Assembly: GCA_045644125.1 (NCBI GenBank)
Contig: JAZRGJ010000224.1
Span: 1 to 60,006 of the forward strand
Direction: 5' to 3'
DNA length: 60,006 nucleotides
Source: Eubacteriales bacterium
Lineage (GTDB): Bacteria > Bacillota > Clostridia > Oscillospirales > CAG-272
How positions within the stretch are numbered: position 1 is the stretch's first letter; each line of letters opens with the position of its first letter. The notes under the pieces are model-generated. The model did no database searches and was not told where the DNA came from. It was given only the letters and a program-made list of their open reading frames with translations. A program made the translations under genes and the position numbers. Of the stretch, positions 8,726 to 55,636 are shown in pieces.

Positions 8726-8777
8726 TTGTGCCTCCTGGTATTGTTCCCGAAAGAACATATATATTTTTATTTTTTAT

Positions 8778-14097: not shown

Positions 14098-14108
14098 AAG
14101 CGTTAACC

Positions 14109-17755: not shown

Positions 17756-17867
17756 TTTGTTCTCCTTGTCAAAAGCTCTTTTAAAGTTTGGTTTTCAAAA
17801 CTTTTAAAGCTTTTTATAAACTATAGTTTGCTTTTTAGTAAAAATATTGATTTAAGTTTGGTTATGC

Positions 17868-19466: not shown

Positions 19467-19562
19467 AAAATCACCATGCTTTAAGGGGCTCGTTTTAAGC
19501 CCGAAAATTACGTGTCTTGCGAGAAAAACATCAAAATGCGTATTTTCTCAATACCGTTGCCG

Positions 19563-24214: not shown

Positions 24215-24356
24215 AAGAACCTCTTAAATCTTAACTTTTAAGTTTATTATAATACCAGACACGAAAAAAGTCATTATAAAATAGTAATTTTAAATTAAAC
24301 TATCGTATTTTTTGCAATATTTTATCAAAAACCGCGCAGCCGAGGAGGGCTTTTGC

Positions 24357-25967: not shown

Positions 25968-26151
25968 TTTAAAAACCTCGCATAGTAAAAAGAAAATTTA
26001 AAGAAGCGGAAGCCGACTTTTAAAAGCGCCGCGCTCCTTCATTCCATTTTACTACGAGGGCCAAGAAAAATCAATAGAAAATCGCCACTTTGTAAATTTA
26101 TTTTTATATATTTTGAGTTTCGCTTTTGTTTACAAAATATTTAAAATCGTG

Positions 26152-26160
26152 TGTTATAAT
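26152..26160 (+). promoter_or_regulatory. Candidate extended -10 element (TGTTATAAT) for the paralog E/F operon
   Basis: TGTTATAAT at 26152-26160, with a second identical 9-mer at 26225-26233, in the 297-bp AT-rich divergent spacer. There is no good -35. Confidence 0.3.
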
Positions 26161-26264
26161 AGGTTTACAGCACTTTTTGCAATGTTTTTTGTGTAAAATG
26201 TAATTTTCTTACCACTTCCTTATTTGTTATAATTGTTATATATAAGATTTTAGGAGAAAGCTAT

Positions 26265-28217: not shown

Positions 28218-28231
28218 GGAAAGGAAAGATT

Positions 28232-40943: not shown

Positions 40944-42551
40944 TTAAATTGAAGCCTTGCCCGTAAGCTTTTCGTAGGAAAGGCCGTATTTATCCGCAAT
41001 ATCCTTTGCGTACGACTTTCCGTCGGGCTTCATTCTGTGAATTTTAAACGATCTTTCGCCCTCTTCCATTCCCGCAACGAGAGTGTCAACCATAACGCCG
41101 CCCTCTCTTATCGAAACGAGATTTATCTCGGGCACGGACGCCGCAAGCTCGTGCAAGTGGGTTGAGAATATTCCCCTTGCGCCTATAACCGCAAAGCTCT
41201 TCAATATCTCCGAGGCGATATACGACGCCTCGTAAGCTCCCGTTGACGAAAGCGACTCGTCAAGAAGAATCAGGCTGTTTTCCGTCACGGAGTCGAAAAT
41301 CTCACGAAGACGGGCGCACTCCTCGCCAAGACGGCCCTTATCGATAGTATCGTCTGCGCCCTCGGGGAAATGCGTGAAAATTCCGTCAACGGGTGATATT
41401 TCCGCATACTCGCAAGGCACGGGAAGTCCAAGCTGGCAAAGAGCGACGGCAGCGCCGAGCGCCACGGTTATAACGGATTTGCCGCCACGGTTGGGGCCCG
41501 TTAAAACGTATATTGTCGCGCGCTCGTCAAATACGAGGTCGTTGGTTATTATTTTTTCCGTAATCGCAAGCGCAACGCGCGGATTATAAAGCGACTTGGA
41601 AACGAAAACCTTATCTTCAAGCGGGCGCACCCTCGGCATAGTGACGGAGCAGCCCTCGTGAGTTGCAAGCCGTGTTATAAGGTCGGAAGCTCTGGAGATA
41701 AACTCGATTTCGGGAAGAAGCCTTAAGAGGAAATCGGAGTTGTCTATAACGTAATCTCCGACAATCGAGCGCCAGCCCTTAACCGACGAGCGAAAAACGT
41801 CTTCGATTGCGGAATTGAAAGCGCCGACGAGCGCCTCCTGCTTATTCTCGCTCTGCCCCTTTCCGAAAGGCGAAAGCTCCGCAATGCACGTAAATGCGTC
41901 GTTTTTAAACGAAAATCTTAAAATTTTATCAAGAAGCTTTCCCGATTTAAAAGGCTCTGCGTTAATTGAGATAACGCCCGCGCTGGACGGCCTTAAATCT
42001 CTGTCAAGGTTAACGCCCACCGTAATGCTCTTTACCTCGTGCACACGGGAGGCAAGCGCCTCAAGCCTTTCGTTAAGCTCCTTATAGAAATCGGAATCGC
42101 AAAGCTCGAAAACGAAATCGGAAAGAGCGGTAAAAGCTTCGCTTTTAATTTTTTCTCTTATCGGCATGAAGCCTTCCTTAAGCGCTTCAACCGCAGAAAC
42201 GTAAAGCTCGATTTCCGTGATACTGTAAAGGTAAGATTCACCGGGATTCGAGCCCTCGGAATCGAGGCGGCGAAGCTCCACTATATCGTCAAGTATCGGA
42301 TATATTTTTGAAAGCGTTTCCTTTATCTCTTCATTCACGAGCATATCCGCAATAGCGCGCTGGCGGTATTTTATTACCTCAACGTCTTTCGTGAAGTAAT
42401 CCGTAAGAGAGCTGTTTTTAAGCTCGAAAATTTCGTTAAGTCCAAGCTCGTCGCAAACCTCTTCCGTAATCTTCGGCAAATTATTTCTGTCAGAATGAAA
42501 TATCTGGGATTCTTCATTCGGATAAAGCAAGCTTATAAATTTCTCTTTCAT
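40944..42551 (-). CDS. MutS-related ATPase (core plus domain V only, no mismatch-binding domain)
   Basis: LTGPNRGGKSV (Walker A), LILLDESLSSTG (Walker B) and FSTHLHELA are present. At 535 aa there is no room for MutS domains I and II. Confidence 0.8.
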   Translation of the reverse strand: MKEKFISLLYPNEESQIFHSDRNNLPKITEEVCDELGLNEIFELKNSSLTDYFTKDVEVIKYRQRAIADMLVNEEIKETLSKIYPILDDIVELRRLDSEGSNPGESYLYSITEIELYVSAVEALKEGFMPIREKIKSEAFTALSDFVFELCDSDFYKELNERLEALASRVHEVKSITVGVNLDRDLRPSSAGVISINAEPFKSGKLLDKILRFSFKNDAFTCIAELSPFGKGQSENKQEALVGAFNSAIEDVFRSSVKGWRSIVGDYVIDNSDFLLRLLPEIEFISRASDLITRLATHEGCSVTMPRVRPLEDKVFVSKSLYNPRVALAITEKIITNDLVFDERATIYVLTGPNRGGKSVITVALGAAVALCQLGLPVPCEYAEISPVDGIFTHFPEGADDTIDKGRLGEECARLREIFDSVTENSLILLDESLSSTGAYEASYIASEILKSFAVIGARGIFSTHLHELAASVPEINLVSIREGGVMVDTLVAGMEEGERSFKIHRMKPDGKSYAKDIADKYGLSYEKLTGKASI

Positions 42552-42584
42552 AGGGAACTCCCGTATATATATTTATTCATAATA

Positions 42585-42613
42585 ATTATAGCACAAAAGG
42601 CGCACGTGCGCAA
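42585..42613 (-). promoter_or_regulatory. Sigma-70 promoter of the mutS-like operon with an overlapping 12-bp palindrome
   Basis: The minus strand reads TTGCGC-17 nt-TATAAT (TGC extended -10). The perfect palindrome GCGCACGTGCGC (42600-42611) covers the -35. Confidence 0.55.
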
Positions 42614-42667
42614 TAGTTTTAAAATAAAATTTATTTTAGCCGCAAAGAACGCCCCTTTCGTATTGGT

Positions 42668-42775
42668 ATTTCCCCACTTTTATTCGCTATATTCACACTT
42701 TTCGGGATTTAATTCTCCACTTTCTCGAATTAAATTCAGGCGAATCAAGCTCAGATTCCCCACTTTTCCGCAATT
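42668..42775 (+). repeat. Four phased direct repeats ATTCYCCACTTTY
   Basis: The CACTTT cores start at 42675, 42696, 42718 and 42761, giving spacings of 21, 22 and 43 bp. Three copies are good (TTTCCCCACTTTT, ATTCTCCACTTTC, ATTCCCCACTTTT) and one is degenerate (ATTCACACTTTT). Confidence 0.8.
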
Positions 42776-42961
42776 TCAAAATTCGCCCGCCACGCCTCTT
42801 GTGTAAAATGCACAAAAATCGCCCGTTTTCCGCAATCTTTTTTGGAGGGGTACTATACTTACAAGCGACGGGCGGGGTGCTAAAATGGACTTACCGAGGG
42901 CAGTGAGCCGGTCGCAACCCGGGGCGGCGGCGCTCGGAATAATCGAAAGCGAGGCATTTTT

Positions 42962-43303
42962 TTGAAGAAAAAAAGCATTTACAGAAAGGATTTCCCCCAC
43001 AAGCTGTATATTTTCTTCGTAAATTACAATGAAAATACGGGAGCGCCGAGTTTCTTGAAATTCGCAAGAAGCATCGGTGTCACCACCGAAGACGTCGAAG
43101 CCTTCAGAGAGCATAAAGAATTTGACAGAGCCTACCGCGAATGTGTGGAAATCAGGAGGGATTACCTCATAGATAACGCTCTTTCCAAGAGATTCGACTC
43201 ATCATTCACTAAATTTCTTTTAACGGAAGAAAACGAAGAAAGCGACGAGCTTGACGGAAAAATCAACTTTACCCTAAAGGTGCTTGACGAAAGTGGAGCT
43301 TAA
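42962..43303 (+). CDS. terS: Terminase small subunit (gp3-packaging-like)
   Basis: APSFLKFARSIGVTTEDVEAFREHKEFDRAYRECVEIRRDYLIDNAL...FLL is the typical HTH-containing TerS layout. It has a TTG start and sits immediately upstream of terL. Confidence 0.65.
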   Translation: MKKKSIYRKDFPHKLYIFFVNYNENTGAPSFLKFARSIGVTTEDVEAFREHKEFDRAYRECVEIRRDYLIDNALSKRFDSSFTKFLLTEENEESDELDGKINFTLKVLDESGA

Positions 43304-44657
43304 AATCAGCGTAACGAAAAAGCAAAAAAGCTTTATCGACGCAAACGAAAGCGAGGTTCTTTTCGGAGGAGCGGCGGGCGGCGGAAAATCGTACGGACAG
43401 ATAGTTGACGCCCTTATTTTCGCCCTCAGATACCCCGCATCGAAGCAGCTTATATTAAGGCGCACCTTCTCGGAGCTTGACAAATCCCTGATAAGAACAA
43501 GCCTTGCCCTTTTCCCGAAAGATATTTACAGCTTCAACGCATCCACCCATACGGGAAAATTCAAAAACGCATCGATTATAGATTTCGGCTACTGCGGCAC
43601 TGAAAACGACGTCTATCAGTATCAAAGCGCAGAGTACGACCTCATCCGCTTCGATGAATTGACTCACTTCACCGAGGCGCAATATATATACCTCATCTCA
43701 CGCGTCAGGGGAGCTAACGGCTACCCTAAGCAAATCAAATCCACGACCAACCCCGGCGGCGTCGGTCACTCTTGGGTAAAAGCAAGATTTATAGATCCCT
43801 CGCCGCCCGGGGAAAGCTTCAGAGGAGAGGACGGAATGAGAAGAATTTTCATCCCCTCGTCCCTTGACGACAACCTCTTCCTTAAAGCGAAAGACCCCGC
43901 CTACCGAGAGAGGCTCGCGGCTCTGCCCGAAAGAGAAAGGCGAGCTTTGCTTTTCGGCGATTGGAATATTTTCGAGGGGCAGTATTTTACGGAATTTTCG
44001 GAAAAAGAGCACGTGTGCGCGCCATTTGAAATACCGAAGTCATGGAGGAAATACAGGGCGATAGACTACGGCCTTGACAGACTCGTTTGCCTTTGGATAG
44101 CCATTTCCCCCGAAAGAAAGGTTTACGTTTACCGTGAATTCGCAGAATCGGGGCTTCCCATAAGCCTTGCGGCGAAGGGAATCTCGGAAAGGACGCCCGT
44201 CGGCGAGGATATTTACGCAACGCTCGCCCCGCCGGACCTTTGGTCACGAAGTCAGGAGAGCGGAAGAAGCAAGGCGACTATCTTTTCCGAGTTCGGCGTA
44301 AATTTCACGAAAACCTCGAACGACAGAGAGGCAGGCTGGCTTGCGATAAAAGAGCTTTTATGCGACACGGGTCGGGGCGCGGCGCTGAAAATCTTCTCAA
44401 ATTGCCGTGAAATCATAAAATGCCTCCCCTCGCTCACCGTCGATCCCATTCGCCCGACGGACACGAGAAGCGAGCCGCACGAGCTGACTCACGCGCCCGA
44501 CGCTCTGCGAGCATTCGCCATCTTCCACACCCGCCCGGCAGAAGAAGTTTACAAGCCTAAACTTGCGCTATGGTCAAACGATATGTGGGAGGATTACGAC
44601 GCGGCGAGTGACGAGGAGAAACACTATTTAAAACGCAAATACGGAGAACCAATGTGA
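43284..44657 (+). CDS. terL: Terminase large subunit
   Basis: Walker A FGGAAGGGKS, Walker B-like LIRFDELTH, then the LLFGDW and nuclease-half motifs (AIDYG..., THAPDALR). The start is TTG at 43284 or GTG at 43293, overlapping the terS end. Confidence 0.85.
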   Translation: MTKVELKISVTKKQKSFIDANESEVLFGGAAGGGKSYGQIVDALIFALRYPASKQLILRRTFSELDKSLIRTSLALFPKDIYSFNASTHTGKFKNASIIDFGYCGTENDVYQYQSAEYDLIRFDELTHFTEAQYIYLISRVRGANGYPKQIKSTTNPGGVGHSWVKARFIDPSPPGESFRGEDGMRRIFIPSSLDDNLFLKAKDPAYRERLAALPERERRALLFGDWNIFEGQYFTEFSEKEHVCAPFEIPKSWRKYRAIDYGLDRLVCLWIAISPERKVYVYREFAESGLPISLAAKGISERTPVGEDIYATLAPPDLWSRSQESGRSKATIFSEFGVNFTKTSNDREAGWLAIKELLCDTGRGAALKIFSNCREIIKCLPSLTVDPIRPTDTRSEPHELTHAPDALRAFAIFHTRPAEEVYKPKLALWSNDMWEDYDAASDEEKHYLKRKYGEPM

Positions 44658-46405
44658 AAACAGAAAATTCAAACAAAAGGGCTCGTCTTGATTTCTTCAA
44701 AGCCTTGTACGAATCCGCAAAGCTTCACTACTCTGACGAGCTTCAGGGCTTTGATTGCAATATGAAGCAATACCGAGGCTCGCTTGAAATAGACGGCTCA
44801 AACGAAAAGGCCATCACCACGAGAAACATAAGCTATGAAATTATAGAAAGCCAGGTTTCGTCCGAAATCCCCTTGCCGAAAGCAGAGCCGTCATCCTACA
44901 GCGAAAAGCGTGACAGATGCGCAAAATCCATAGAAAGACTTCTCTATTCCTTAAGAAGCAAGCTCGATTACGAATCAATAAACGATATAGACGAGCGCTA
45001 CACTTACATTTTCGGCGGAAGCGTCTTTTACGTTGAGTGGGACGGAGCAAAAAGAGAGGGGCGCGAGAGAGGCGGAGTTAAAATTCTTTGCCTTTCGCCC
45101 AAGGATTTCATTCCCCAGCCAAACGTTACCGAAATCTCGGATATGGAGTACTTCTTCTTAAAATTCAGCGCAACCCGAGGCGAGCTTAAATCAAAATACG
45201 GAATAAGCGAGAGCGACTCGCTCCTTGCGGAATGTGAATTTGAGTCCGAGGGAAGCGAGGAATACGACACCGTTTCACTCGTGATAACATTCTATCGCGA
45301 CGAGGACGGCGACGTTGGAAAATTCGTTTTTTCGGGTGACGTTGCTCTTGAGGATTTGCCGAAATATTACTACAGAAAGCTAAAGCTTTGCAAAAGCTGC
45401 GGCGAGGACGAGCTATCTTGCAGATGCAAGAAAAAGAGCTTCGAGGTGATAAACGAAATTTACGAAAAAATCGAGGGCGGCGAGAAAAACTCCGCTACGG
45501 GCGCAGCCTTTCCCGACGCTTTAACGAGAGCCGTCAGCGAAGTTCCCTACTACGTGCCGAGGTCATTCCCCATAGTTATAAGGAAGAACACCTCGAGCGA
45601 AGGCAGGCTTTTCGGACAGTCGGATTGCGATTACATACGCCCCGAGCAGCAAGCCATAAACAAGATAGAATCCCGAATTTTGCAGAAGCTTTTGCGCGCG
45701 GGAGTTACCCCGATAGTACCCGAGGATGCGAGCATCAGCCTTAACAATTCGGTTTTCGGTCAGCTTATAAAAATTCGCCCCGGCGAAAGCGCCGCGCAAT
45801 ACGGAAAGGTTGACACGACGCCCGATATAAGCCAGGACATTGCGGAAGCCGAAAGGCTTTACGACCACTCGAAGCGAATACTCGGAATTTCCGACGCGCT
45901 TCAAGGCCTTGACAGCAAGACCGAGTCGGGCTACGCTCGCCAGCTGAAAATTTCCCAATCAAGCGGCAGACTTGAATCGAAAAGAAAGATGAAGCACAGC
46001 GCCTACGCAAAGCTTGACAGACTTATTTTCGAGCATTATCTGGCTTTTGCCGACGAGCCGCGCGACCTCGTTTACAAGGATTCTTACGGAAGGATTCACA
46101 ATACGGAATTCTCACGCCACGACTTTATAGAATACGACATTGAGGACGAGAGCTTCTATTATTACGACGCGTATCTTTTCTCAATCGACTTGAATACGGG
46201 CGCAGAATACCAAAGAGAAACCCTTTGGGAGAGAAATTTCGAGAATCTCAAAGCAGGAACTCTCGGCGACCCCGCCCTCCCCTCGACGCTGCTTCGATAC
46301 TGGCAATTTCAAGAGAGGGCGCACTACCCCTACGCAAGAGAAAACGTTGAATATTTTCTCGGCCTGATAAACGAAAGCGAGGAACGAAGCGGTGAAGTCA
46401 TATGA
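44654..46405 (+). CDS. Putative portal protein (with a Cys4 insertion)
   Basis: 583 aa. GTGA overlap with the terL stop, in the canonical position and of the canonical size for a portal. No portal motif was recognised by eye. Confidence 0.55.
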   Translation: MKTENSNKRARLDFFKALYESAKLHYSDELQGFDCNMKQYRGSLEIDGSNEKAITTRNISYEIIESQVSSEIPLPKAEPSSYSEKRDRCAKSIERLLYSLRSKLDYESINDIDERYTYIFGGSVFYVEWDGAKREGRERGGVKILCLSPKDFIPQPNVTEISDMEYFFLKFSATRGELKSKYGISESDSLLAECEFESEGSEEYDTVSLVITFYRDEDGDVGKFVFSGDVALEDLPKYYYRKLKLCKSCGEDELSCRCKKKSFEVINEIYEKIEGGEKNSATGAAFPDALTRAVSEVPYYVPRSFPIVIRKNTSSEGRLFGQSDCDYIRPEQQAINKIESRILQKLLRAGVTPIVPEDASISLNNSVFGQLIKIRPGESAAQYGKVDTTPDISQDIAEAERLYDHSKRILGISDALQGLDSKTESGYARQLKISQSSGRLESKRKMKHSAYAKLDRLIFEHYLAFADEPRDLVYKDSYGRIHNTEFSRHDFIEYDIEDESFYYYDAYLFSIDLNTGAEYQRETLWERNFENLKAGTLGDPALPSTLLRYWQFQERAHYPYARENVEYFLGLINESEERSGEVI

Positions 46406-47267
46406 AGAAATCATAAAGGACTACGTCGCCGAAAACGCAGACGTGCTTAACGAAAAATCCCCTACGAAAAGGGGCATTATCAAATTCAGCGAAGCGGTTT
46501 CGAGAGCCATTCTCGAGCGCAAAATTCGTGACACGGGGTACGGCGACCTCGCTGAAAGCTTGGCATCGGCAGGGCTTTCGGGAAGCGGATACGCCGACTA
46601 TATCAAAGGGCGGGCAGACGCAAACGTCATCGGCAAAACCAAGACTGCCTTAGATGAAAAAATGGGCGGCGACGAGATGCTCGACTACGAAATCGGCATA
46701 GAAAAAGAGCGGCTTGAAAAAAAGCGGCTCGAAGAAAAAGAAAAAGAGAAAAAGCGGCTTGAGGAGCTTGAAAAAAAGCGACTTGAAAAGGAAGAAAAGG
46801 AAAAAGCCGCCGCCGAGAAAAAGGAGGCTGAGCGCCTTGAAAAAGAGCGCAAGGAGCTTGAGAAAAACAAGAAGACCGTTTTAAGCTTCGCAAACGCAAA
46901 CAACGTAACGGATGCAAGCGTCTTATATAACTACGCTATATCGCTCGGACTTGAAGAAAGTGACGCAAAAGAGATTTCCGAGAGCGCCTCAAAAAACGTT
47001 TCGGAAAAGCTGAGAGTCAAAAACATAGAAAAAGCGCGCGAGCATATAGTGACGGAGCGCTTCACGAGAAATCAGGCCTACGCTTACGCATTAAGCCTCG
47101 GCCTTTCGGAAAGGGACGCTTTGGAGCTTGCCTACTTCGCTTACGAGATAAATCAGGACACCTCAAACATTCTCGACTACGAGGGAGTGCGTGAGCCGCC
47201 GAAAAACCAAGCGCCCCCGAAAAACGACATAAAACACAAAAATAAACTAGAAACGAAAACGGAGTAA
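46392..47267 (+). CDS. Acidic/KE-rich coiled-coil protein (scaffold-like or minor head protein)
   Basis: 291 aa. The KKRLEEKEKEKKRLEELEKKRLEKEEKEK stretch and a duplicated SLGL(E/S)E(S/R)DA segment are present. It overlaps the portal end. Confidence 0.4.
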   Translation: MKSYEEIIKDYVAENADVLNEKSPTKRGIIKFSEAVSRAILERKIRDTGYGDLAESLASAGLSGSGYADYIKGRADANVIGKTKTALDEKMGGDEMLDYEIGIEKERLEKKRLEEKEKEKKRLEELEKKRLEKEEKEKAAAEKKEAERLEKERKELEKNKKTVLSFANANNVTDASVLYNYAISLGLEESDAKEISESASKNVSEKLRVKNIEKAREHIVTERFTRNQAYAYALSLGLSERDALELAYFAYEINQDTSNILDYEGVREPPKNQAPPKNDIKHKNKLETKTE

Positions 47268-47271
47268 AAAA

Positions 47272-47409
47272 ATGAAAGAAAGAAATTATTCACCCTACGC
47301 TACCTTCTCCACGGAGAAAATCAACGCGCCGAAGCCCAAGGCAAAGGGCGAGCCCAAATCCACGAAAATCACAGGAAAGGGCGACCTTCGCGCCAAGGGT
47401 AACAAATAA
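47272..47409 (+). CDS. Small basic protein (45 aa; below the ORF-track cutoff)
   Basis: ATG at 47272 with a GGAG RBS 7 nt upstream. It encodes MKERNYSPYATFSTEKINAPKPKAKGEPKSTKITGKGDLRAKGNK. Its stop overlaps the next ATG (TAATG). Confidence 0.45.
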   Translation: MKERNYSPYATFSTEKINAPKPKAKGEPKSTKITGKGDLRAKGNK

Positions 47410-47849
47410 TGGAAGAGAGCATTCTTGATACTACTTCGCTCGAAGAAAATTCGAGCGGCGGCGACGGGGATTTCAATGAAAGCGCCGATACGTGTGTTGA
47501 AATTTCAAGCGACGGCTACGAGGAGCTTATCGAGCGCGACCTTGACGCCTTAAGAGCCGCTATCCCCGAGCTTGAAAACATAAAGGACATCTCGGAGCTT
47601 GAAAACCCCGTGCGCTACGGAGCGCTGAGAGATCTCGGCTTAAGCCCCGAGGAAGCTTACAGAGCGACGACGACGGGCAGAAAAGAGCGCCGCCCCGATA
47701 ACCGAGCGCACTTAAGAAGCTCCGTCCCGAGAGCCGTGCGCTCACCGGAGAGCAACATCTCCTACCGCGAGCTTGAAATCGCGCGTGAGATATTTTCAGG
47801 TGTCAGCGATGCGGAAATCCAAAGATTATACAGAAAAGTAACGAAATAA
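47409..47849 (+). CDS. Acidic protein, candidate scaffolding protein
   Basis: 146 aa. Highly acidic N-terminal half with a helical C terminus, lying upstream of the capsid-size ORF. Confidence 0.4.
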   Translation: MEESILDTTSLEENSSGGDGDFNESADTCVEISSDGYEELIERDLDALRAAIPELENIKDISELENPVRYGALRDLGLSPEEAYRATTTGRKERRPDNRAHLRSSVPRAVRSPESNISYRELEIAREIFSGVSDAEIQRLYRKVTK

Positions 47850-47862
47850 GAAAGGAAAACAA

Positions 47863-48300
47863 ATGTTTAAGCTTAAGAAAATTTTAAACAAACACAACAA
47901 TGCGCCCGAGTTTGAGGTGCAGAAAATGTCGTACGACGCAATCGGTGTAAAGGAGGCGGTCTATCTTTTCTCAAGCAGCGAGCTGACCTCATTCGTCGAT
48001 GAGAGCGAAGGATCGCACACCTATTATGTCTCGTATGCGAACATCGGAGAGTTTGACGACAACAGAGACGCCCTTTGCTACAGAATAACCCCCGATATGT
48101 TCTTCGAGGTAAAATGCGAAAACGGAGGCGAGATCCCCGATGTGGGAAAGAAATTCGTTCTTTACAGAAGCTTTGATAAGCAAGGCTTTTCGTCCGTACA
48201 AATCGTCAGCTCCTCGCAAAACAGCGACGGCTACGTGGTAGACGCCAGCAACTGGGACGTCAACAAGACGGTGCTCGTAAGATTCCACTGCAAACAGTGA
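47863..48300 (+). CDS. Hypothetical virion-module protein (145 aa)
   Basis: Good RBS (AAAGGAAAACAAATG). It sits between the scaffold-like and capsid-like ORFs and could be a decoration or head protein. Confidence 0.4.
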   Translation: MFKLKKILNKHNNAPEFEVQKMSYDAIGVKEAVYLFSSSELTSFVDESEGSHTYYVSYANIGEFDDNRDALCYRITPDMFFEVKCENGGEIPDVGKKFVLYRSFDKQGFSSVQIVSSSQNSDGYVVDASNWDVNKTVLVRFHCKQ

Positions 48301-48320
48301 TTTAAAAGAAAGGAAACAAG

Positions 48321-49364
48321 ATGATAATTTATTCTAAAAACCCCGAAAACCAGGGCGCATACGGCAAAATCGATACGCCCGTAAAAATGATAATAGAGCA
48401 TGAGAGCGACCTCCTCAAAAAAAGGGGCGGCATATGCGACTGGCTCTTCAACGTTGAGAAAAGCTCACGCTTCGGCGAAACCATCATAGCGGAAAACGAG
48501 TTCGACGTTTTCCAATACGCCCTCGAGGGCACGGGCGCTATGAGCGACGAAATCCGTGAAACCTCGAAGAAATTCATCGAACATATTCAGTTCATGAAGG
48601 AATTTATAATTTCCGCAGAAATGATGGAGGATGCCGTGTGGGGCATTGCGCAGGATGCAAAGCGCAGAGCCGAAAACTTCACACGCGCCTACTATAAAAC
48701 CATGAACAAGATTTGCGAAGCGGCGCTTATAAACGGAAATCGCGGCTCGGCTAAATTTGCCGGCGCAACCCTCGACCTCACCTCCCCCGACGGAGCCCCC
48801 CTCTTCTCAAGACACAACAACAACGGCACAACCCAGAGCAACCATTTTTACGGTGATATAATTTCAAGCACCGTAAATTCAAAAAGAGAAAGCTCTACTT
48901 CGGTTTTCGAAGAGGCTCTCGCAAAGCTCAGCGTTATCATGAGAAACTTCAAGGACGAAAGAGGCGAGCCCCTCGGCTACACGGCAGACACCCTCATCCT
49001 CCCCGGCAACAAGCCGAAGCTTGAATCCATAGTCAAGAAGGTTTGCGGCTCGGAAGGAGCGCTCGGAAACGGATATAACGACATAAACCTCCACTACGGA
49101 AACTGGAATATCGTTATTCTTCCCAACTGGCAGCCTGCCGACAATCGCCTTATGGTTATGTCTAGCGAGGCTAACAAAAACCTTTCGGGAAATATGTTCT
49201 TCAACAGAGTTCCCCTCACCGTTTCAAGCTGGGTGGACCACCACACCGGGAACTACGTTTGGAACGGAAGATGCAGATTCGGCGTAGGCTTTGGCTCTTA
49301 TAAGCACATTTTGCTTGCGGTTGATTCCGAATCGAACGTTTCGGGCGCAGAAAAGCTCGCCTAA
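48321..49364 (+). CDS. Putative major capsid protein
   Basis: 347 aa, the size and position typical of an HK97-fold/T7-like MCP. It is followed by a strong hairpin. The call rests on context only. Confidence 0.5.
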   Translation: MIIYSKNPENQGAYGKIDTPVKMIIEHESDLLKKRGGICDWLFNVEKSSRFGETIIAENEFDVFQYALEGTGAMSDEIRETSKKFIEHIQFMKEFIISAEMMEDAVWGIAQDAKRRAENFTRAYYKTMNKICEAALINGNRGSAKFAGATLDLTSPDGAPLFSRHNNNGTTQSNHFYGDIISSTVNSKRESSTSVFEEALAKLSVIMRNFKDERGEPLGYTADTLILPGNKPKLESIVKKVCGSEGALGNGYNDINLHYGNWNIVILPNWQPADNRLMVMSSEANKNLSGNMFFNRVPLTVSSWVDHHTGNYVWNGRCRFGVGFGSYKHILLAVDSESNVSGAEKLA

Positions 49365-49369
49365 GCGTG

Positions 49370-49392
49370 ACGGGCGGATTTTATCCGCCCGT
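49370..49392 (+). other. Stable hairpin after the capsid-like gene (attenuator/mRNA stabiliser; no U-tract)
   Basis: ACGGGCGGA-TTTTA-TCCGCCCGT, a 9-bp GC-rich stem, 6 nt after the stop codon. Confidence 0.6.
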
Positions 49393-49418
49393 TAAAACTA
49401 AACAAAGAAAGGAGAACT

Positions 49419-50261
49419 ATGACACTTAACGAATTAAAAAAAGAAGTTCTCGCGCTTACGTTTGAAACGGAGCTTGATTCGAGCGAGGCGTTCGTTTTTG
49501 CCGCAAACCGCGCCCTCTGCGAAATTCACGGCGATATAGACAGGCGCGAGTTTTTGAAAATATACAAAAGAAAGCTTGAATACATAGAGCGCTACGAGAA
49601 GCTCTCGCACGAGGGCGGAAGCGATTTTTCAATAAGCTTATCGGGCAAGGCTTTCAGCCTTACCGCATCCGGCGTAGGCAAGATTATCTTAAGCGACGCC
49701 GCCCGCCAAGAAGTAATCGATTTTTGCGGCGCAGCCACCGTAATAAAACGAAAAGTGACGGGCGGCGAGGCTCTCTTGAAATTTACGGGCGACTTTGACT
49801 ATGAAATCCATAATCTTGCGAGCTTCGGATTTTTGACGGGAGAGAGTGACTCCGACATCCCCCTTTTCGAGAGCTTTGAAAGAGTTGACGTGAAGTCGCG
49901 CGATCCCCTTTTCCTCGCTTTGCTAAGCGCGCCGAAAAACGGGCGAGGCGAGCTTATCCCCGGATTGAGAACCGAGGGCGGCTTGCTTTTTATCCCCCGT
50001 GAATACGAGGGCGAAATAAACCTTTGCTACAAGCGCTTGCCAAAAGAAATTTCCAAAGACGCCACGGATGCCGAGATCGATATTTCGCCCGAATGTTCGC
50101 ATCTTCTCGCTCTGCGATGCGCCGCTTATCTTCTCTTCGACGGAAACGAGGGGCTGGCGGAATACTATTTATCGCTATATAACAGCGCCCTCGGAGCTTT
50201 GAAGCTGACTATGAGAAAGGTGACGTCCGAAAGCTACTCCGACGTTTTGGGGTGGGCGTGA
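49419..50261 (+). CDS. Hypothetical virion protein (adaptor/tubular-A position)
   Basis: 280 aa with an AAAGGAG RBS. TGATG coupling to the following large ORF. Confidence 0.4.
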   Translation: MTLNELKKEVLALTFETELDSSEAFVFAANRALCEIHGDIDRREFLKIYKRKLEYIERYEKLSHEGGSDFSISLSGKAFSLTASGVGKIILSDAARQEVIDFCGAATVIKRKVTGGEALLKFTGDFDYEIHNLASFGFLTGESDSDIPLFESFERVDVKSRDPLFLALLSAPKNGRGELIPGLRTEGGLLFIPREYEGEINLCYKRLPKEISKDATDAEIDISPECSHLLALRCAAYLLFDGNEGLAEYYLSLYNSALGALKLTMRKVTSESYSDVLGWA

Positions 50262-52978
50262 TGGCGAGATTTAAAAAAGCGAGAGCGGGCGCAGAGTATT
50301 CGGTGAATTACTCTTCAATGGGCGGCGTAGATTTCTCTTCCCCCGACAGCATCAGCGGACGCCGCCGCTATTCTTACCTTGAAAATATGTATAGGGATTA
50401 CGACGGCGAGGGCGCAGAGCTTACGGAAAGCGTCCCCGGCTTCAGAAAAATCTTTTCCCTTGGCGAAAGGATAAACGGCTTTTATCTTCAAAGAATCAAA
50501 AAGGACGAGGAATACCTGATAATCCACGCAGGGCGCAAGCTTTACCGCGCGGCGCTTTGCGATATAGACGAGGGGCTTGAGCTTCAACCCTTAAGAACGG
50601 TAAACGACGGCAAAAGCGCGGGATTTTCTTTCGGAAAAAGCGTTTTCATTCTCGACGGCTCGAAAATTGCCCGCATTGACGAAAACGGCGCAGCGTCATT
50701 CGTCAGCGACGGCAGCGCAGCCGCTCCTTACGTCCCGACGACCTACGTAAATTCAAAGGAATACGAGCAACTAAATCTTTTGACACGGCAGTTTTTCGAG
50801 GAGTTTTACGTCGCCTTTCCCGAGGATATAGCCTACGAAACGCCGGGCCTTGAATACAGAATACTCGACAAGGATTTGAAAAAATGCGCCGTAACGGGTA
50901 TCAGTAATTCGTTTTCGGGCGACCTTTACATCCCCTCGTTTGCGAATATCGGCGGCGAGCGATACCAGGTCGAAAAAATAGACGAAATGGCGTTTGCCGA
51001 CAGTCTTGGAATAAAAACTCTCACGATTTCAGACGGAGTCCGAGAGATAGGAAAAAGGGCTTTTTCCTACGCATCAAAGCTAAGCAAGGTAACGCTTCCC
51101 GACAGCGTAAGCGAAGTTGGCGACGGCGCTTTCGAGCACTCAATTTCGCTTGTGGAAATACGGCTCGGAAAAGACCTTGTAAGCTTGGGAAAGGGCACGT
51201 TTGACGGATGCATCAATCTTGTGACTGTGAAATACGCATACGAGGCGATAGGCCTCGGAATAATCGGCTCTGCCGCCTCGATTCCCGAAAAGGCGACGGT
51301 GATTGAATATTCAAAAAACGACACTTTGAGAGCCGAGATTCCGATAAAAACGCCGACTGACACCCTCGTTGAGCTTTTGGTGGGAGAAGAGAGCGTAGAT
51401 TTCACGGAGACTTACGACGGCGATCTTATAAAGAGCGTTATCATCCCCTCCGTCGAAAAGAAAAAGCTTACGTCTGCGACGGTAAAAATACGTGGTTACG
51501 CTCACAGAACGAAATTCAATTTCAACTCCCCCGGCATCAATTTTATAAGCGGCATGGGCGGAGCTGAGCCGAGCGAGGCGATAAACAACTGTACGGTTTG
51601 CGAGTGCTTTGACGGAAGAGTTTTCCTCTCGGGAAATCCGAGCTTTCCGAATACGGTTTTTTATTCCGCAAGAGATAAAAGCGGAAACGTAAATCCCCTT
51701 TACTTCGGGGTTATGAATTACTTTAACGACGGCGTCGGGGGCTTCCCGATAAACTCCCTGCTCTCCTCGGGCGACTCGCTTGCCGTTTTCAAATCGGGAG
51801 ATGACGGCGGCGGCAGTATTTTCTATCACTCGCCGCATGAAACCGGCATTGATATTTTGCCTAAGATATACCCCGTGTCGTATATTCACTCCGGAATTTG
51901 CGCTCTCGGCGAATCAATTTCATTTTTTGACGATCCCATTTTCATCTCGGCAATAGGCGTTTTGGCGCTTGATAAAAAGGCGATAAATCTCGACAGAAGC
52001 ATCGCTTGCCGCTCGCATAACGTAAACCCAGAGCTTCTTTCGTCAAATCTTTCGAAAGCGAGCCTTGCCATTTGGTCGGGGTATCTTGTCGTACTTACCG
52101 AGGGAAAGATATTCCTTGCGGATTCAAGGGCGCTTTTCAGGCACGAAACGGGAAACACCGAATACGAGTGGTACTATCTTTCGGGCATCGGGACTTACAC
52201 GGGCGACGACTTCGCTTACGAATACATAAAAAGCGACGATCCCTTATATGAAACGCGTGAAGAGCTTATCGGAGAGAGGACGGAGTCTTGCGTTTATTCT
52301 GAGAAAAACGCCGACGGCGAGGATTGCTTTTACGTTTTGGAGGGAGGAAGAAAATACAGAGTCGGAAAAAGCGGCGAGCGCTTCGGCGGAGATTTTCACC
52401 CTGCGAGCATTGCCTTTGCAATTGATAATAAGCTCTTGTTTTTCGGCACGGAAAACGGCGACGTTTGCGTATTCAATAACGACAAGCGAGGAGTGCCGCC
52501 CGAAAGGCTCGCAGAAGCCAACGACTTTGACAGAGCGGCATACGACTCCGCAATGAAGCGAAGCATCCACCCCGACTTTTATTCATTCGACAAGCATGCG
52601 CCAAGATATGCGCTCTCAACCGTGAGCGACGACGGCGACGTGCCCGACATGACGAAGGACACGGTCAAGGGCTCTTTGGTTTTGAAATGCAAGTGCTTCG
52701 GCTCGGGCGCTTTCACGGTTGAGGTCGGCACGAATAAAAAGGGCTACCGAGAGCTTGCGAGCTTTTCGGATTCCCGCCTTGACTTTGAGGATTTCGACTT
52801 CGGAAGCCTTGCCTTTTTCGCAGAGAAGCGAGTCAATATACCGATAGCCGAAAAGGAGAGAGGCTGGGTTGACAAAACCGTTTCCGTTTATTCGGAAAAA
52901 TTCCGCTCCCCCTTTGGCGTGTATTCAATATCCTACCGCTTCCGCCCGAGAGGAAAAATCAAAAACGCAAAAATTTAG
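50261..52978 (+). CDS. Large tail/nozzle-like protein with an embedded BspA-type LRR module
   Basis: 905 aa from the ATG at 50261. Residues ~200-345 carry LRR_5 units (IDEMAFADSLGIKTLTISDGVREIGKRAFSYASKLSKVTLPDSVSEVGDGAFEHSISLVEIRL). The C-terminal ~550 aa look like repeated beta structure. Confidence 0.5.
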   Translation: MARFKKARAGAEYSVNYSSMGGVDFSSPDSISGRRRYSYLENMYRDYDGEGAELTESVPGFRKIFSLGERINGFYLQRIKKDEEYLIIHAGRKLYRAALCDIDEGLELQPLRTVNDGKSAGFSFGKSVFILDGSKIARIDENGAASFVSDGSAAAPYVPTTYVNSKEYEQLNLLTRQFFEEFYVAFPEDIAYETPGLEYRILDKDLKKCAVTGISNSFSGDLYIPSFANIGGERYQVEKIDEMAFADSLGIKTLTISDGVREIGKRAFSYASKLSKVTLPDSVSEVGDGAFEHSISLVEIRLGKDLVSLGKGTFDGCINLVTVKYAYEAIGLGIIGSAASIPEKATVIEYSKNDTLRAEIPIKTPTDTLVELLVGEESVDFTETYDGDLIKSVIIPSVEKKKLTSATVKIRGYAHRTKFNFNSPGINFISGMGGAEPSEAINNCTVCECFDGRVFLSGNPSFPNTVFYSARDKSGNVNPLYFGVMNYFNDGVGGFPINSLLSSGDSLAVFKSGDDGGGSIFYHSPHETGIDILPKIYPVSYIHSGICALGESISFFDDPIFISAIGVLALDKKAINLDRSIACRSHNVNPELLSSNLSKASLAIWSGYLVVLTEGKIFLADSRALFRHETGNTEYEWYYLSGIGTYTGDDFAYEYIKSDDPLYETREELIGERTESCVYSEKNADGEDCFYVLEGGRKYRVGKSGERFGGDFHPASIAFAIDNKLLFFGTENGDVCVFNNDKRGVPPERLAEANDFDRAAYDSAMKRSIHPDFYSFDKHAPRYALSTVSDDGDVPDMTKDTVKGSLVLKCKCFGSGAFTVEVGTNKKGYRELASFSDSRLDFEDFDFGSLAFFAEKRVNIPIAEKERGWVDKTVSVYSEKFRSPFGVYSISYRFRPRGKIKNAKI

Positions 52979-52991
52979 AAAGGAAAAACTT

Positions 52992-53378
52992 ATGCAAAGC
53001 AAAAAAATCGAGGAATCCGAAACTCTTAACCTGAAAGTTTCAGCGCTTCCGACAAGACCGACCGCCTCCTCCGCTTTCGGAGGGCGCGGCTATACCGCCG
53101 CTGAAATGAAAGCGGCGTTTGACAAATTTCCCGAATTTATTTTGGAAAAGCTCAATCTTCTTATAGACGACCTGCTTCGTGAGGGCGAGGACTCTTACGT
53201 CGGCGGCTTTCAAACGGGGATTAAAGAAAATTACAGCTTAAAAAATCTTATCGACGGAATTCTTAGCGGAGAATTTGCAAATCTTCTTAAGGTAAACGGC
53301 AAAAGCCTCGCCTCCGTTATAGCCGAGCTTGAAGACGAAATTCTCGAATTAAGAGAAAGGAGCGCGGCTGCCGGGTGA
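52992..53378 (+). CDS. Hypothetical protein (128 aa)
   Basis: ATG at 52992 with a GAAAGGAAAAA RBS. The track ORF start at 52869 lies inside the previous gene. Confidence 0.45.
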   Translation: MQSKKIEESETLNLKVSALPTRPTASSAFGGRGYTAAEMKAAFDKFPEFILEKLNLLIDDLLREGEDSYVGGFQTGIKENYSLKNLIDGILSGEFANLLKVNGKSLASVIAELEDEILELRERSAAAG

Positions 53379-53773
53379 ACGTAATTTACTACAAAAGACG
53401 CTTCGGAAAATTTGAATGCGAAAGAATTAAAATCTCGCAACCGACAAGCGAAACGGAGATTCGATTCGACGTTGAAATCGAGGGCAGCGTTTTGCTCGGT
53501 AAAACTCTTAAGAAAATCGAGGGAAAAAGCTGTATTTTTGACACTGGTAGGCTTGAAGACGGGTTTTACCGCCCATCCATCCACCTCAAAGCCTCCGTAA
53601 TCGAGCCCGAGGGATTTGAAATTTCGGGCGGAATTCCAAAGCTCGTCCCGAAAGACGACGCTTATATAAGAGAGCTTTCACGTCGCATCGACGCTCTCTT
53701 TTCGGAATGTTCCGAAATCAAAGAAAAGCTTTCGGAGCACGAAGGAAAAATCAACGGAAACCCATTATTTTAA
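53375..53773 (+). CDS. Hypothetical protein (132 aa)
   Basis: GTG start overlapping the upstream stop (GTGA). Confidence 0.4.
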   Translation: MNVIYYKRRFGKFECERIKISQPTSETEIRFDVEIEGSVLLGKTLKKIEGKSCIFDTGRLEDGFYRPSIHLKASVIEPEGFEISGGIPKLVPKDDAYIRELSRRIDALFSECSEIKEKLSEHEGKINGNPLF

Positions 53774-53787
53774 AGAAAGGAATTTTT

Positions 53788-54369
53788 ATGAAAAAGAAAA
53801 CGAAAATACTTATTGGCATAGCCTTTACGCTGACGCTTTTATCGCTCCTTGCCGTATCCTCATTCGCAAGCGAAGAGATTCAGAGCGCAGCTGAGGAGGT
53901 CGGCGTATTTGCCGAAATTTACGCCTATCTTTACGCTAACGCAGACAAAATTTTCTCACTTCTTGCCTTTATCGGCGCTCTTATTATAAGCTTCTCTTAC
54001 AAAAAGGGGCTCTTCCCTTTCGTTGAAAAGGGGCTCTCGGCTCTTGCCGCCTCCGTGAAATCCTTAAGGGAGGAAACGGAAAAAAACAAGATTGACAAAG
54101 AGAGCTTTATGGACGAGGTGGCAAAGGCGCTTTCGGAATCCGAAAACGCGTTAAATGCGAGCCTTGAAAAGCTTTCAAGCCTTGAAGCCGAGCTTGCAAA
54201 GGCGGCGCTTATCGGCAAGAAAACGGAGGAATTCCGACAGGTTTTACTTGCGGAAGTTGAAATGATATACGATATTTTCACCTCGTCCTCACTCCCGCAA
54301 TACCAAAAGGACAAGGTCGGAGAGGCTTACTTAAGAATGAAGCGCTCGCTCGACGGACAAGAGGAATAA
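53788..54369 (+). CDS. Membrane/secreted coiled-coil protein (193 aa)
   Basis: ATG at 53788 (AAAGGAA RBS). The signal-like MKKKTKILIGIAFTLTLLSLLAVSSFA is followed by a second TM segment and then a coiled coil. Confidence 0.5.
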   Translation: MKKKTKILIGIAFTLTLLSLLAVSSFASEEIQSAAEEVGVFAEIYAYLYANADKIFSLLAFIGALIISFSYKKGLFPFVEKGLSALAASVKSLREETEKNKIDKESFMDEVAKALSESENALNASLEKLSSLEAELAKAALIGKKTEEFRQVLLAEVEMIYDIFTSSSLPQYQKDKVGEAYLRMKRSLDGQEE

Positions 54370-54370
54370 A

Positions 54371-54730
54371 ATGAAACGAGGATTCAATGCGCTTATTTTA
54401 AAACTCATCGCCCTCTTTCTTTCAACGGCGCTACCGGCTCTGGCAACTCTTTCTTATTTTCCCGTTTTCAAAAAGGGCGGAGCTGCGACTGCGCTTTCGG
54501 GAATGGCGCTTCTTTTACTTCTCGTTTCCATCACTCCGCTTATAAGACTTTTCAAAAGATTTTTCGCCTCGCCGAGCGCTACGGGCGTTTGGTGCTTTAT
54601 ATTCGTCGTCTTTTTTGCGCTATCTAAAATTGCGGAAGAGATGGTTGCAATATCCCTCGTAGGATTTCTCGGCAACCTTGCGGCTTCATTCATCTGGCGA
54701 ATTTCGGAAAGAGGGCCAAATGAAGAATAA
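54371..54730 (+). CDS. Small 3-TM membrane protein (holin-like or ejection-protein-like)
   Basis: 119 aa with three hydrophobic helices and a charged C terminus (ERGPNEE). Confidence 0.45.
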   Translation: MKRGFNALILKLIALFLSTALPALATLSYFPVFKKGGAATALSGMALLLLLVSITPLIRLFKRFFASPSATGVWCFIFVVFFALSKIAEEMVAISLVGFLGNLAASFIWRISERGPNEE

Positions 54731-55550
54731 TTTTGATTCGGCAATTTTGGATTCGGGCGATTTTATAAGGCGCACGGGACTTGCCATCGTAAACAACGCC
54801 GGCCGAGCCGTAACGCTAATCACGCTTCTCGTCGTGTCGCTCGTCACCTTTACCGACTTATCCTTTGCGGGATTCGGAGCGAAAAATTTCACGGCTCTCG
54901 TTATGATAATGCTCGTCGCCTCTTATCTCATATATTTTTCAATGGAGGATACCGGCGAAAAGGCGGGCGAGGATAGCGAGGAATTCAAGGCCGCGCTTAA
55001 AAAGTACTCGCTTGCAAGAGAGAAAATTTCAGCTGACAGGGTGCAATCTCTCCGAGAATTTTGCAAGGAATATTCAAGAGCGGAGCTTGAATACAGACGA
55101 GAGAATCTCATCATGAGCTACGGCGAGAGCATGGAGGATTTTCAGCGATTCAAGGACGGCGGGTGTGAGTTTTCCGAGCGAAAGGCGAAAATTTTCAAAA
55201 AGGCGCTGAGGCTTCGGGCGGTTGAGCTTTCTCCGAAAACGCTTCTTTCAAAGGAGCACACGAAATCAAGAAGCGAGCTTGCAAACCCCGAAATTTTCAA
55301 GCTCTTAAGGCTCGCCTTAAAGCTTATACCCACAACGCTTTGTATGCTTTTAACGATAAGCATTATTCCGAGCGTGAAGAGCGGCATGAGCTTTTCCGCC
55401 GTGGTTGAGGGCATCTTAAAGCTTTCAAGCCTTCCCGTTATCGCATTCAGAGGCTACAGCGCAGGATATTTTTACGCAAGACGCTCAAAATGCCTTTGGA
55501 TAGAAACGAAAACGAGGCTGCTTGAAGCGTTTATAAAAGAAAGCGCATAG
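54720..55550 (+). CDS. 4-TM membrane protein (276 aa)
   Basis: ATG at 54720 (AGAGGG RBS), overlapping the previous gene. Two N-terminal and two C-terminal TM helices flank a charged helical domain. Confidence 0.5.
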   Translation: MKNNFDSAILDSGDFIRRTGLAIVNNAGRAVTLITLLVVSLVTFTDLSFAGFGAKNFTALVMIMLVASYLIYFSMEDTGEKAGEDSEEFKAALKKYSLAREKISADRVQSLREFCKEYSRAELEYRRENLIMSYGESMEDFQRFKDGGCEFSERKAKIFKKALRLRAVELSPKTLLSKEHTKSRSELANPEIFKLLRLALKLIPTTLCMLLTISIIPSVKSGMSFSAVVEGILKLSSLPVIAFRGYSAGYFYARRSKCLWIETKTRLLEAFIKESA

Positions 55551-55557
55551 CTTTCTT

Positions 55558-55587
55558 GAGGGCTGTCGAAAGGCGGCCCTCTTTTTT
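55558..55587 (+). terminator. Strong intrinsic terminator closing the phage-like cassette
   Basis: GAGGGCTGTC-GAAA-GGCGGCCCTC (10-bp stem including 2 G-U pairs, GNRA loop) followed by TTTTTT. Confidence 0.85.
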
Positions 55588-55607
55588 GACAATAAGCCAC
55601 CCTTTTA

Positions 55608-55636
55608 TTGACTTTAAGAGATAATTATGATAAAAT
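55608..55636 (+). promoter_or_regulatory. Sigma-70 promoter of the helicase gene
   Basis: TTGACT-17 nt-TAAAAT, 30 nt upstream of the ATG at 55666. Confidence 0.6.

Follow-up and report, generated by a model that had tools for sequence, protein, structure and literature searches.

Gene transfer agents (GTAs) are hard to recognise in genomes, and to our knowledge very few GTA gene clusters are known outside the Alphaproteobacteria. Here we analyse a stretch of 60,006 nucleotides (contig JAZRGJ010000224.1, hereafter the window) from a Eubacteriales bacterium of the Oscillospirales family CAG-272. The window contains a 12.8-kb cassette of phage-type genes, which opens with a small terminase gene and closes with a gene for a polytopic membrane protein. 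We lean towards reading the cassette as a virion and packaging operon that derives from a podovirus, has been domesticated and is inherited vertically, and as a candidate GTA-type viriform of gut Oscillospirales including CAG-272. A literature search found no description of such an element in CAG-272.

The first podovirus-like GTA cluster, FpGTA of Faecalibacterium prausnitzii, was reported in 2026; its 40-nm particles carry ~9 kb of host DNA, and GTA-type packaging was seen in many gut Clostridia without assignable genes (Borodovich et al., Nat Commun 2026, PMC12946183). FpGTA resembles the cassette in its gut Oscillospirales host, in its ~10-kb podovirus-type operon (terS, terL, portal, head proteins, major capsid protein (MCP) and nozzle) and in the lack of replication and integration genes, and it is near-ubiquitous in its host genus. 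Its nozzle matched PDB entry 8eap, which is also matched by the nozzle of the window. Compared through family models and the FpGTA annotation, the two clusters differ as well. The FpGTA MCP is annotated as N4-gp56 (RCH50849.1), whereas the MCP of the window and two of its orthologues have no NCBIfam match at E <= 0.1. FpGTA encodes a Prp-like cysteine protease (RCH50850.1) between portal and MCP, whereas the 291-, 146- and 145-aa open reading frames (ORFs) of the window have no match (a 45-aa ORF was not scanned). A second FpGTA operon encodes fibres, a receptor-binding protein (RBP), holin and endolysin; no operon of this kind is present within the 60-kb window, and the cassette has instead a leucine-rich repeat (LRR) insert in its nozzle and three terminal membrane proteins. 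FpGTA is known from particles, DNA and proteomics, the cassette from its genes. Since the MCP-family and protease features of FpGTA are not found, an independent domestication is possible, and we do not file the cassette under the FpGTA family.

The RcGTA-type GTAs of the Alphaproteobacteria (type I; Kogay et al. 2022, PMC9662315) share with the cassette a non-replicating head and packaging cluster that is inherited vertically, co-evolves with the host, is under purifying selection and has a host-like composition; in both, lysis and accessory genes are expected at other loci. RcGTA differs in being siphovirus-like, with a tail tube and a tape measure, and in belonging to an unrelated phylum, and its regulation by GafA, CtrA and quorum sensing and its packaging of 4 kb of host DNA have been demonstrated (PMC9662315). 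By description, the candidate GTAs of Coprocola from the murine gut (bioRxiv 10.64898/2026.07.08.737213) are also alike, with a ~14-kb core of terS, terL and structural genes and no integration or replication genes. Their lysis genes form a small cluster of their own, their host order is different, and coverage data from virus-like particles (VLPs) are available for them.

Conservation and selection across species

We scanned one genome per GTDB species; the scan is pattern-based, so that the 62 genomes found are a lower bound. Portal homologues with 55-83% identity occupy 63 loci in 62 assemblies and are single-copy per genome. All 62 carriers are metagenome-assembled genomes (MAGs) of gut Clostridia/Eubacteriales from ruminants, horse and humans, and one related genome, UBA1740, is placed by GTDB in Oscillospirales, family CAG-272. 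In tblastn searches with all window proteins, the whole cassette is colinear in essentially every locus that is long enough. The helicase gene dinG lies directly downstream in 21 of the 27 evaluable loci. Upstream, two arrangements are found: a mutS-like/panK/CBS/rimP/nusA block in 14 loci and the window, and a block of ABC-F, amino-acid ABC transporter, rluD, lspA and sepF genes in 32 loci. The core genes are full length (MCP in 61/61 loci, nozzle in 56/59 and, at coverage >=90%, terL in 56/58), and internal stops in MCP, terL, portal and nozzle are confined to one locus at most.

The initial annotation, which had proposed an intact virion cassette, named a fuller prophage at this junction in close relatives as evidence that would overturn the proposal. 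None of the 63 related loci holds a fuller prophage or extra phage modules there. Misassembly, named in the same way, is ruled out because independent assemblies share the content of the cassette, as well as its ends where the contigs reach them.

Synonymous sites are saturated in most species pairs (proportion of synonymous differences, pS, ~0.75). In the unsaturated pairs, L036-L052 and L009-L011, the ratio of nonsynonymous to synonymous divergence (dN/dS) is 0.015-0.20 for each cassette gene, and the dS of the cassette equals that of the neighbouring ABC-F gene (0.08-0.26 vs 0.16; 0.23-0.48 vs 0.43). In close species pairs, dN/dS is 0.04-0.10 for terL and 0.015-0.10 for the MCP gene. Between the window and locus L001, it is 0.08-0.27 for the cassette, with 0.09 for the last gene, and 0.05-0.16 for the host flanks. 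With dN/dS far below 1 and intact genes in 62 species, the earlier argument that intactness speaks against decay holds. Moreover, because synonymous sites are saturated between species while the genes are intact, a recent remnant is excluded.

Combined terL, portal and MCP distances correlate with those of host genes (Mantel r of 0.71 for ABC-F, 0.88 for mutS-like, 0.86 for panK and 0.82 for nusA; p <= 0.0025). The composition of the cassette is close to that of host genes (GC content, 0.487 vs 0.486; GC content at third codon positions, 0.570 vs 0.551; codon-usage correlation, 0.92). The cassette is inherited vertically and has co-evolved with the host genome, as expected of a GTA or other viriform. 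With respect to two other defining features of GTAs and viriforms (PMC9662315), virion and packaging genes are present, and replication, integration and excision genes are absent from both the locus and the 60-kb window. Because at least 62 species keep the cassette intact at a largely conserved position, a GTA-type particle maker owned by the host is the most likely reading, ahead of a dead or a living virus.

Packaging, head and tail proteins

The cassette comprises 15 translationally coupled ORFs on the same strand without frame breaks (42962-55550; Table 1). An ORF scan reproduces this layout as first described, including the overlaps (terS/terL by 20 nt, GTGA at 44654, 46392/46405, GTGA at 53375 and 54720/54730) and the coupled stop/start codons (TAATG at 47407-47411 and TGATG at 50259-50263). 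Structure and homology searches identify the large ORFs as virion proteins, so the claim of a virion cassette stands.

Hidden Markov models bear out the proposed identities of terS, terL and portal. TerS is kept in 56 loci with a median identity of 54%, and its N-terminus carries a conserved helix-turn-helix (HTH)-like motif. The Walker A motif GGAAGGGKS is found in TerL as noted before. The portal contains a cluster of four cysteines (C246, C249, C256 and C258; CxxC-N6-CxC; window 45389-45427), which is conserved in 55 of 57 orthologues; the portals of the distant phages L064 and L066 have similar clusters. Such an insertion, characteristic of this portal lineage, may bind zinc.

The 291-aa protein between portal and capsid gene is scaffold-like by position; it can be aligned between species only in part and has no family match in Pfam, PHROGs or NCBIfam. 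The acidic 146-aa protein is likewise a candidate for head assembly or scaffolding. Between them lies the 45-aa micro-ORF, for which tblastn detects in-frame homologues (53-84% identity) in the same place in over a dozen loci. It is conserved in both sub-lineages, and a 48-aa ORF occupies this slot in L126, a distant relative with 39% identity.

The 347-aa protein had been proposed as the capsid protein from its size. Full-length profile-profile comparison (hhalign) aligns its family with capsids of gut phage contigs at a probability of 100% and E = 2e-39. These phage capsids score above threshold for PF25209 (Phage_capsid_4) and also match Mu gpT; therefore, the 347-aa protein is an HK97-type MCP. 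PHROGs yields a weak match only (phrog_371, E = 5e-4), and a single-sequence AlphaFold2 model has a predicted local distance difference test (pLDDT) score of 33. Among 1.84 billion representative proteins, 301 relatives are found at E <= 1e-3, forming a continuum down to 25% identity. The adaptor is kept in 58 loci, and its counterpart in phage contig L064 has an equally weak SU10_adaptor match. When the alignments of portal, MCP and adaptor were searched as profiles against PDB sequences, no virion protein was matched significantly.

The 905-aa ORF, suspected from its size, proves to be a podovirus nozzle. An AlphaFold2 model computed from an alignment of 78 sequences has a pLDDT of 87.6 and a predicted template modelling score (pTM) of 0.79. 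In Foldseek, the model matches the nozzles of cyanophage A4, T7 (gp12), Kp9, SU10 and P22 (gp10) in the PDB with E of 4e-20 to 1e-12, and tail tubular protein B and gp10 in BFVD. Like T7, SU10 and P22, the cassette has a portal-adaptor-nozzle architecture and this nozzle fold, at ~10% sequence identity. Unlike in these phages, no fibre or tailspike gene and no recognisable gp14/15/16-type core proteins are found in the window, and the LRR insertion is extra.

The LRR insertion is a BspA-type domain at approximately residues 220-350 (LRR_5, E = 8e-17). It is present in the aligned orthologues and in all database homologues listed, and a profile search of the nozzle alignment against PDB sequences matches through the LRR domain alone. 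A search with a fused MCP-nozzle query returned nozzle homologues alone. The insert is 27-33% identical to the LRRs of a 1591-aa surface protein of the host. In the relatives L126 (4632-13673) and L127 (MCP identity, 35-39%), the nozzle has no LRR insert, and an LRR_5 protein of >1030 aa is encoded separately downstream. The separate protein in these distant relatives suggests that the LRR module is an exchangeable receptor binder.

Downstream of the nozzle gene, the soluble 128-aa protein is a candidate tail or ejection accessory. Two transmembrane (TM) segments are predicted in 35 of 43 orthologues of the 194-aa protein. At the end of the L127 cassette, genes of 242, 127 and 296 aa mirror the three membrane proteins of the window cassette. 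In one sub-lineage, with L010 (18797-20390), L019 (19206-20620) and ~20 other group-B loci, two to three extra genes (~155, 380-390 and 78 aa, no Pfam match) lie between the 128-aa and 132-aa genes. They are not in the window lineage and could encode accessory fibre or receptor-binding proteins.

Family scans (Pfam, PHROGs and NCBIfam) of the cassette and its flanks detect no integrase, repressor, replication, tail tube, tape measure, baseplate or endolysin family, as the initial annotation had stated. Scans of the cassette detect no protease family, no att-like flanking repeats are found, and ARAGORN predicts no tRNA anywhere in the window. Replication, lysis and lysogeny modules are absent from the window and from all 63 related loci, indicating that the cassette is not an autonomous phage; the distant phage relatives L064, L066 and L069 do carry such modules. 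The same had been argued from capsid capacity, on the assumption that an MCP of ~350 aa and a portal of ~580 aa build capsids for several tens of kb. That argument is unreliable, given the FpGTA particles of ~40 nm with ~9 kb (PMC12946183); the conclusion stands without it.

In phage GenBank entries, only distant relatives with 27-33% identity are found, in two human-faecal VLP contigs (MT836833 and MT837280); portals are 31-33% and MCPs 27-28% identical to those of these phages. The gut podophage contigs L064 (MT836833) and L066 have the order terL, portal, scaffold-size ORFs, MCP, adaptor and nozzle; in L069, whose module is embedded in a 3.19-Mb genome, the MCP gene precedes the portal gene. 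As a group, these phages share with the cassette the structural module, the weak SU10_adaptor match and the Cys-rich portal insertion, but their nozzles are ~620 aa long and have no LRR insert. Genes for an integrase, a DNA methylase, collagen-like fibres, GH25/M23 endolysins and a holin are distributed among L064, L066 and L069. These temperate podophages look like the ancestral virus type. Two intermediate relatives with 35-39% identity have similar cassettes, one of which encodes an LRR protein of >1000 aa on its own in place of the nozzle insert. In IMG/VR, 21 contigs (L071-L091) match, most of them short chromosomal fragments of the cassette, some with the mutS-like or ABC-F gene. One of the contigs, L090 (IMGVR_UViG_3300024269_004823, 32.6 kb), has a terL with 60% and a portal with 41% identity, beyond which lie large, unrelated genes on the minus strand, and could be a different element that uses the same packaging genes.

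Control region, boundaries and chromosomal setting

The initial annotation placed the start of the block at 42615. This position falls in the divergent intergenic region; the cassette begins at its own promoter region (~42799-42886), and its first gene is terS at 42962. A 103-aa ORF at 42495-42806 is probably spurious. At the other end, the strong terminator is confirmed (hairpin at 55558-55581), followed by a strong sigma-70-like site at 55608-55636 that corresponds to the proposed dinG promoter. The hairpin reported 3' of the capsid gene is also real, and is likely an mRNA-stability or attenuation element.

Table 1 Features of the cassette and its control elements in the window.
Feature	Position	Strand	Description
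Operator-like imperfect palindrome	42799..42815	+	TTGTGTA-AAA-TGCACAA; ~80 nt 5' of the -10 box
Cassette promoter	42841..42886	+	Consensus scan match; TTTGG at 42841-42845
ATACTTAC/-35-like element	42855-42862	+	Part of cassette promoter
Extended -10 TGCTAAAAT	42878-42886	+	Part of cassette promoter
5' leader hairpin	42894..42937	+	Outer stem CCGAG/CTCGG, inner stem GTCGC/GCGGC, loop AACCCGGG (YCCGGR motif)
Small terminase subunit terS, 113 aa	42962..43303	+	phrog_3064 terminase, E = 1.8e-8
Large terminase subunit terL, 457 aa	43284..44657	+	PF03237, E = 2.6e-9; phrog_979, E = 5e-48
Portal, 583 aa	44654..46405	+	phrog_156 portal, E = 1.3e-24; weak SU10_portal match
291-aa protein	46392..47267	+	Charged Glu/Lys-rich coiled coil; between portal and capsid gene
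Basic micro-ORF, 45 aa	47272..47409	+	Between scaffold-like genes
Acidic protein, 146 aa	47409..47849	+	Isoelectric point 4.6; in 61 loci; no family match
145-aa protein	47863..48300	+	Fast-evolving; positional equivalents u2, u24 elsewhere; no family match
Major capsid protein (MCP), 347 aa	48321..49364	+	HK97-fold, Phage_capsid_4/Mu gpT-like
G+C-rich hairpin, 9 bp	49370..49392	+	Directly 3' of capsid gene; without T-run; read from sequence
Head-to-tail adaptor, 280 aa	49419..50261	+	PF24175 SU10_adaptor, E = 9e-5, under curated cutoff
Tail nozzle, 905 aa	50261..52978	+	Beta-propeller, T7 gp12/P22 gp10/SU10 type
Soluble protein, 128 aa	52992..53378	+	In 55 loci; no TM segment; no family match
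Soluble protein, 132 aa	53375..53773	+	Position kept; divergent equivalents (u3) in other species
194-aa protein	53788..54369	+	2 TM segments and C-terminal coiled coil (hydropathy)
Basic protein, 119 aa	54371..54730	+	3-4 TM segments, holin-sized; kept in 39 loci
Polytopic membrane protein, 276 aa	54720..55550	+	Final cassette gene; conserved TM count 2-4
Intrinsic terminator, operon end	55558..55590	+	10-bp stem, 7 G-C pairs, T-run

Upstream of terS, the pattern ATACTTAC-N12-17-TGnTAnAAT is found in 30 of 56 loci despite the saturation of synonymous sites, and a TTTGG box is retained there as well. The right half of the operator-like palindrome, TGCACAA, occurs exactly within <=320 nt 5' of terS in 29 of 56 loci, which is ~35x background, and the pattern across loci is TTGTGnA-N3-TGCACAA. 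Rex and CRP/FNR boxes were considered and rejected, as the half-site spacing is one base too short; therefore, we name no regulator. In three species, a winged-helix/HTH gene that is absent from the window (u23, 129-212 aa; L016:1604-2100, L030:3875-4580 and L032:466-1104, all on the minus strand) lies a few kb 5' of the cassette. It is preceded by a ATACTTAC...TGnTAnAAT promoter in two of the three, and could possibly encode a dedicated regulator.

CCGG-loop hairpins with a stem of >=5 bp are formed at 35% of CCGG sites in the leaders vs 6.8% elsewhere (Fisher p = 3e-7). The stem sequences vary between species, and a leader hairpin with a stem of >=4 bp is present in only 17 of 56 loci. The claim of a leader hairpin is based on per-sequence folds and this enrichment test: a MAFFT alignment of the leaders is poor, and RNAalifold predicts no structure from it. 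Rfam has no match near the cassette or the leader. Together, the partly conserved promoter and operator and the leader hairpin suggest that the cassette may be under host control.

Host genes on both sides of the cassette establish the chromosomal identity of the 60-kb window. To the left lie infB-nusA-rimP and genes for a type II pantothenate kinase, a CBS protein and a mutS-like ATPase; to the right lie dinG and then a nucleoside phosphorylase gene. The window also contains a gene of the methionine gamma-lyase family (PF06838) and a large glycoside-hydrolase cluster. That the whole window is a large phage is ruled out by rimP-nusA-infB, a thiamine pyrophosphate (TPP) riboswitch and the glycoside hydrolases. 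The TPP riboswitch (RF00059, 67.9 bits, 1100-1198, minus strand) lies 5' of a gene for a YuaJ-type thiamine transporter (140-1018). The 1591-aa surface protein (3983-8758, minus strand) has 10 stretches of BspA LRR_5 and Listeria-Bacteroides repeats. The mutS-like gene (40944-42551, minus strand) is divergent from the cassette and encodes a 535-aa MutS paralogue consisting of domain V alone. A 970-aa protein (36711-39623, minus strand), whose gene adjoins rimP, has no Pfam match and an interspecies identity of 25-51% with partial coverage. At 12475-31186, large genes without Pfam match, including those of 547, 532, 931, 650 and 984 aa, are interleaved with genes for a melibiase, a protein with a weak, below-threshold GH106-like match, and beta-helix and DUF4838 proteins; this region is probably a polysaccharide-degradation locus.

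Proposed function and alternative explanations

If the cassette is a GTA-type operon, its conserved host-type promoter, with the operator-like palindrome and, in many species, a leader hairpin, would switch it on, probably in some cells only. The portal, the scaffold-like proteins and the HK97-fold MCP would then build a procapsid, TerS and TerL would fill it with DNA by a headful mechanism, and the adaptor and gp12-type nozzle would close it with a short tail. The LRR domain grafted onto the nozzle may bind a cell surface, and the three membrane proteins may serve DNA ejection or release; particles of this kind could transfer DNA between cells. As genes for replication, excision and lysins are missing from the locus, the particles would be filled with chromosomal DNA, and lysis would depend on genes elsewhere, as in RcGTA and FpGTA. 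A fuller account, which we regard as plausible but short of probable, is an ancient domestication of a temperate gut podophage, independent of FpGTA and fixed in CAG-272 and its relatives. Its particles, small and short-tailed, would carry host DNA, would be targeted to kin by the nozzle LRR and would be controlled by a dedicated operator and leader hairpin.

Several observations weigh against a GTA-type function. Purifying selection indicates that the genes are useful to something, but does not tell what the use is. The promoter pattern can be recognised in no more than about half of the loci, and all genomes compared are MAGs. Several metagenome contigs carry the mutS-like/panK/CBS block without a cassette beside the mutS-like gene; they could represent the second arrangement or lineages that do not have the cassette. 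No lysin or holin family is detected in the cassette or the 60-kb window. The putative particles might also package the 12.8-kb locus itself, and both the particles and their DNA content are predicted from sequence.

The initial annotation had offered a GTA-like element, a satellite and a very recent remnant side by side. Of these, the GTA-like or domesticated element stands as a candidate. A defective prophage, left by neutral decay or recent truncation, would explain why most phage modules are missing, but is effectively refuted: the same gene set persists in 62 species with saturated synonymous sites, with core genes of full length, dN/dS far below 1 even for small genes, and fully host-like codon usage. 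The size of ~13 kb and the packaging-plus-capsid content recall capsid-forming satellites of the type of capsid-forming phage-inducible chromosomal islands (cf-PICIs). However, an integrase, a primase or replication gene, a regulator and att repeats are all missing from the cassette, its adaptor and nozzle are its own, and it descends vertically as a single copy at a fixed site, which makes a satellite unlikely. A small autonomous podovirus trimmed by misassembly conflicts with the agreement among independent assemblies, and we consider both possibilities, taken together, very improbable. The cassette could also supply the structural part of a mobile system that is split or depends on a helper, and preferentially package an element encoded elsewhere in the genome, such as a prophage lacking structural genes, a satellite or a plasmid. 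Our view of this genome is limited to 60 kb, the HTH-like motif of TerS would permit sequence-specific packaging, and the winged-helix gene u23 lies nearby in three species, with the shared promoter motif in two. Such a partner, however, would have had to survive in at least 62 species alongside a cassette that is fixed in place and co-diverges with housekeeping genes, and no partner element is present in any of the ~20-kb loci; we judge a split system distinctly improbable.

Closest to the GTA reading are domesticated particles whose benefit is not transfer, such as a PBSX-like killer or bacteriocin, DNA release or biofilm formation, or an anti-phage decoy or interference. The evidence from conservation and selection applies to them equally, and the adhesin-type LRR of the nozzle is of the same family as that of the 1591-aa surface protein. 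PBSX of Bacillus subtilis sets a Gram-positive precedent, as it packages host DNA yet kills (PMC12946183). Like the cassette, it is phage-derived, chromosomally fixed and non-propagating; unlike the cassette, it resembles a myovirus, spans 28 kb and has a contractile tail as well as its own lysis genes and regulators, and its activity is killing, not transfer. The phage-derived bacteriocins known so far consist of tails only or, as PBSX, are myovirus-like, whereas the cassette keeps a complete terminase-portal-capsid set. This set, with a terL dN/dS of 0.04-0.10, indicates that DNA packaging itself is selected. In addition, family scans found no toxin or lysin domain. We regard a non-transfer role as unlikely.

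The cassette is a concrete and apparently non-orthologous GTA candidate for an entire uncultured family. It yields a recipe for recognition that uses sequence only, namely a fixed locus, full colinearity, a dN/dS well under 1, a dS that matches the flanking genes and the absence of mobility genes. It offers testable parts in the LRR-bearing nozzle as a receptor binder, the operator and leader as a switch, and the three membrane proteins. IMG/VR lists chromosomal fragments of the cassette as viral genomes, which inflates virus counts and host links. If the fuller account with an independent domestication is true, podovirus-type GTAs would be a recurrent invention of gut Clostridia, and some of the GTA-type packaging signals in VLP long-read data would gain the gene clusters that they have lacked.

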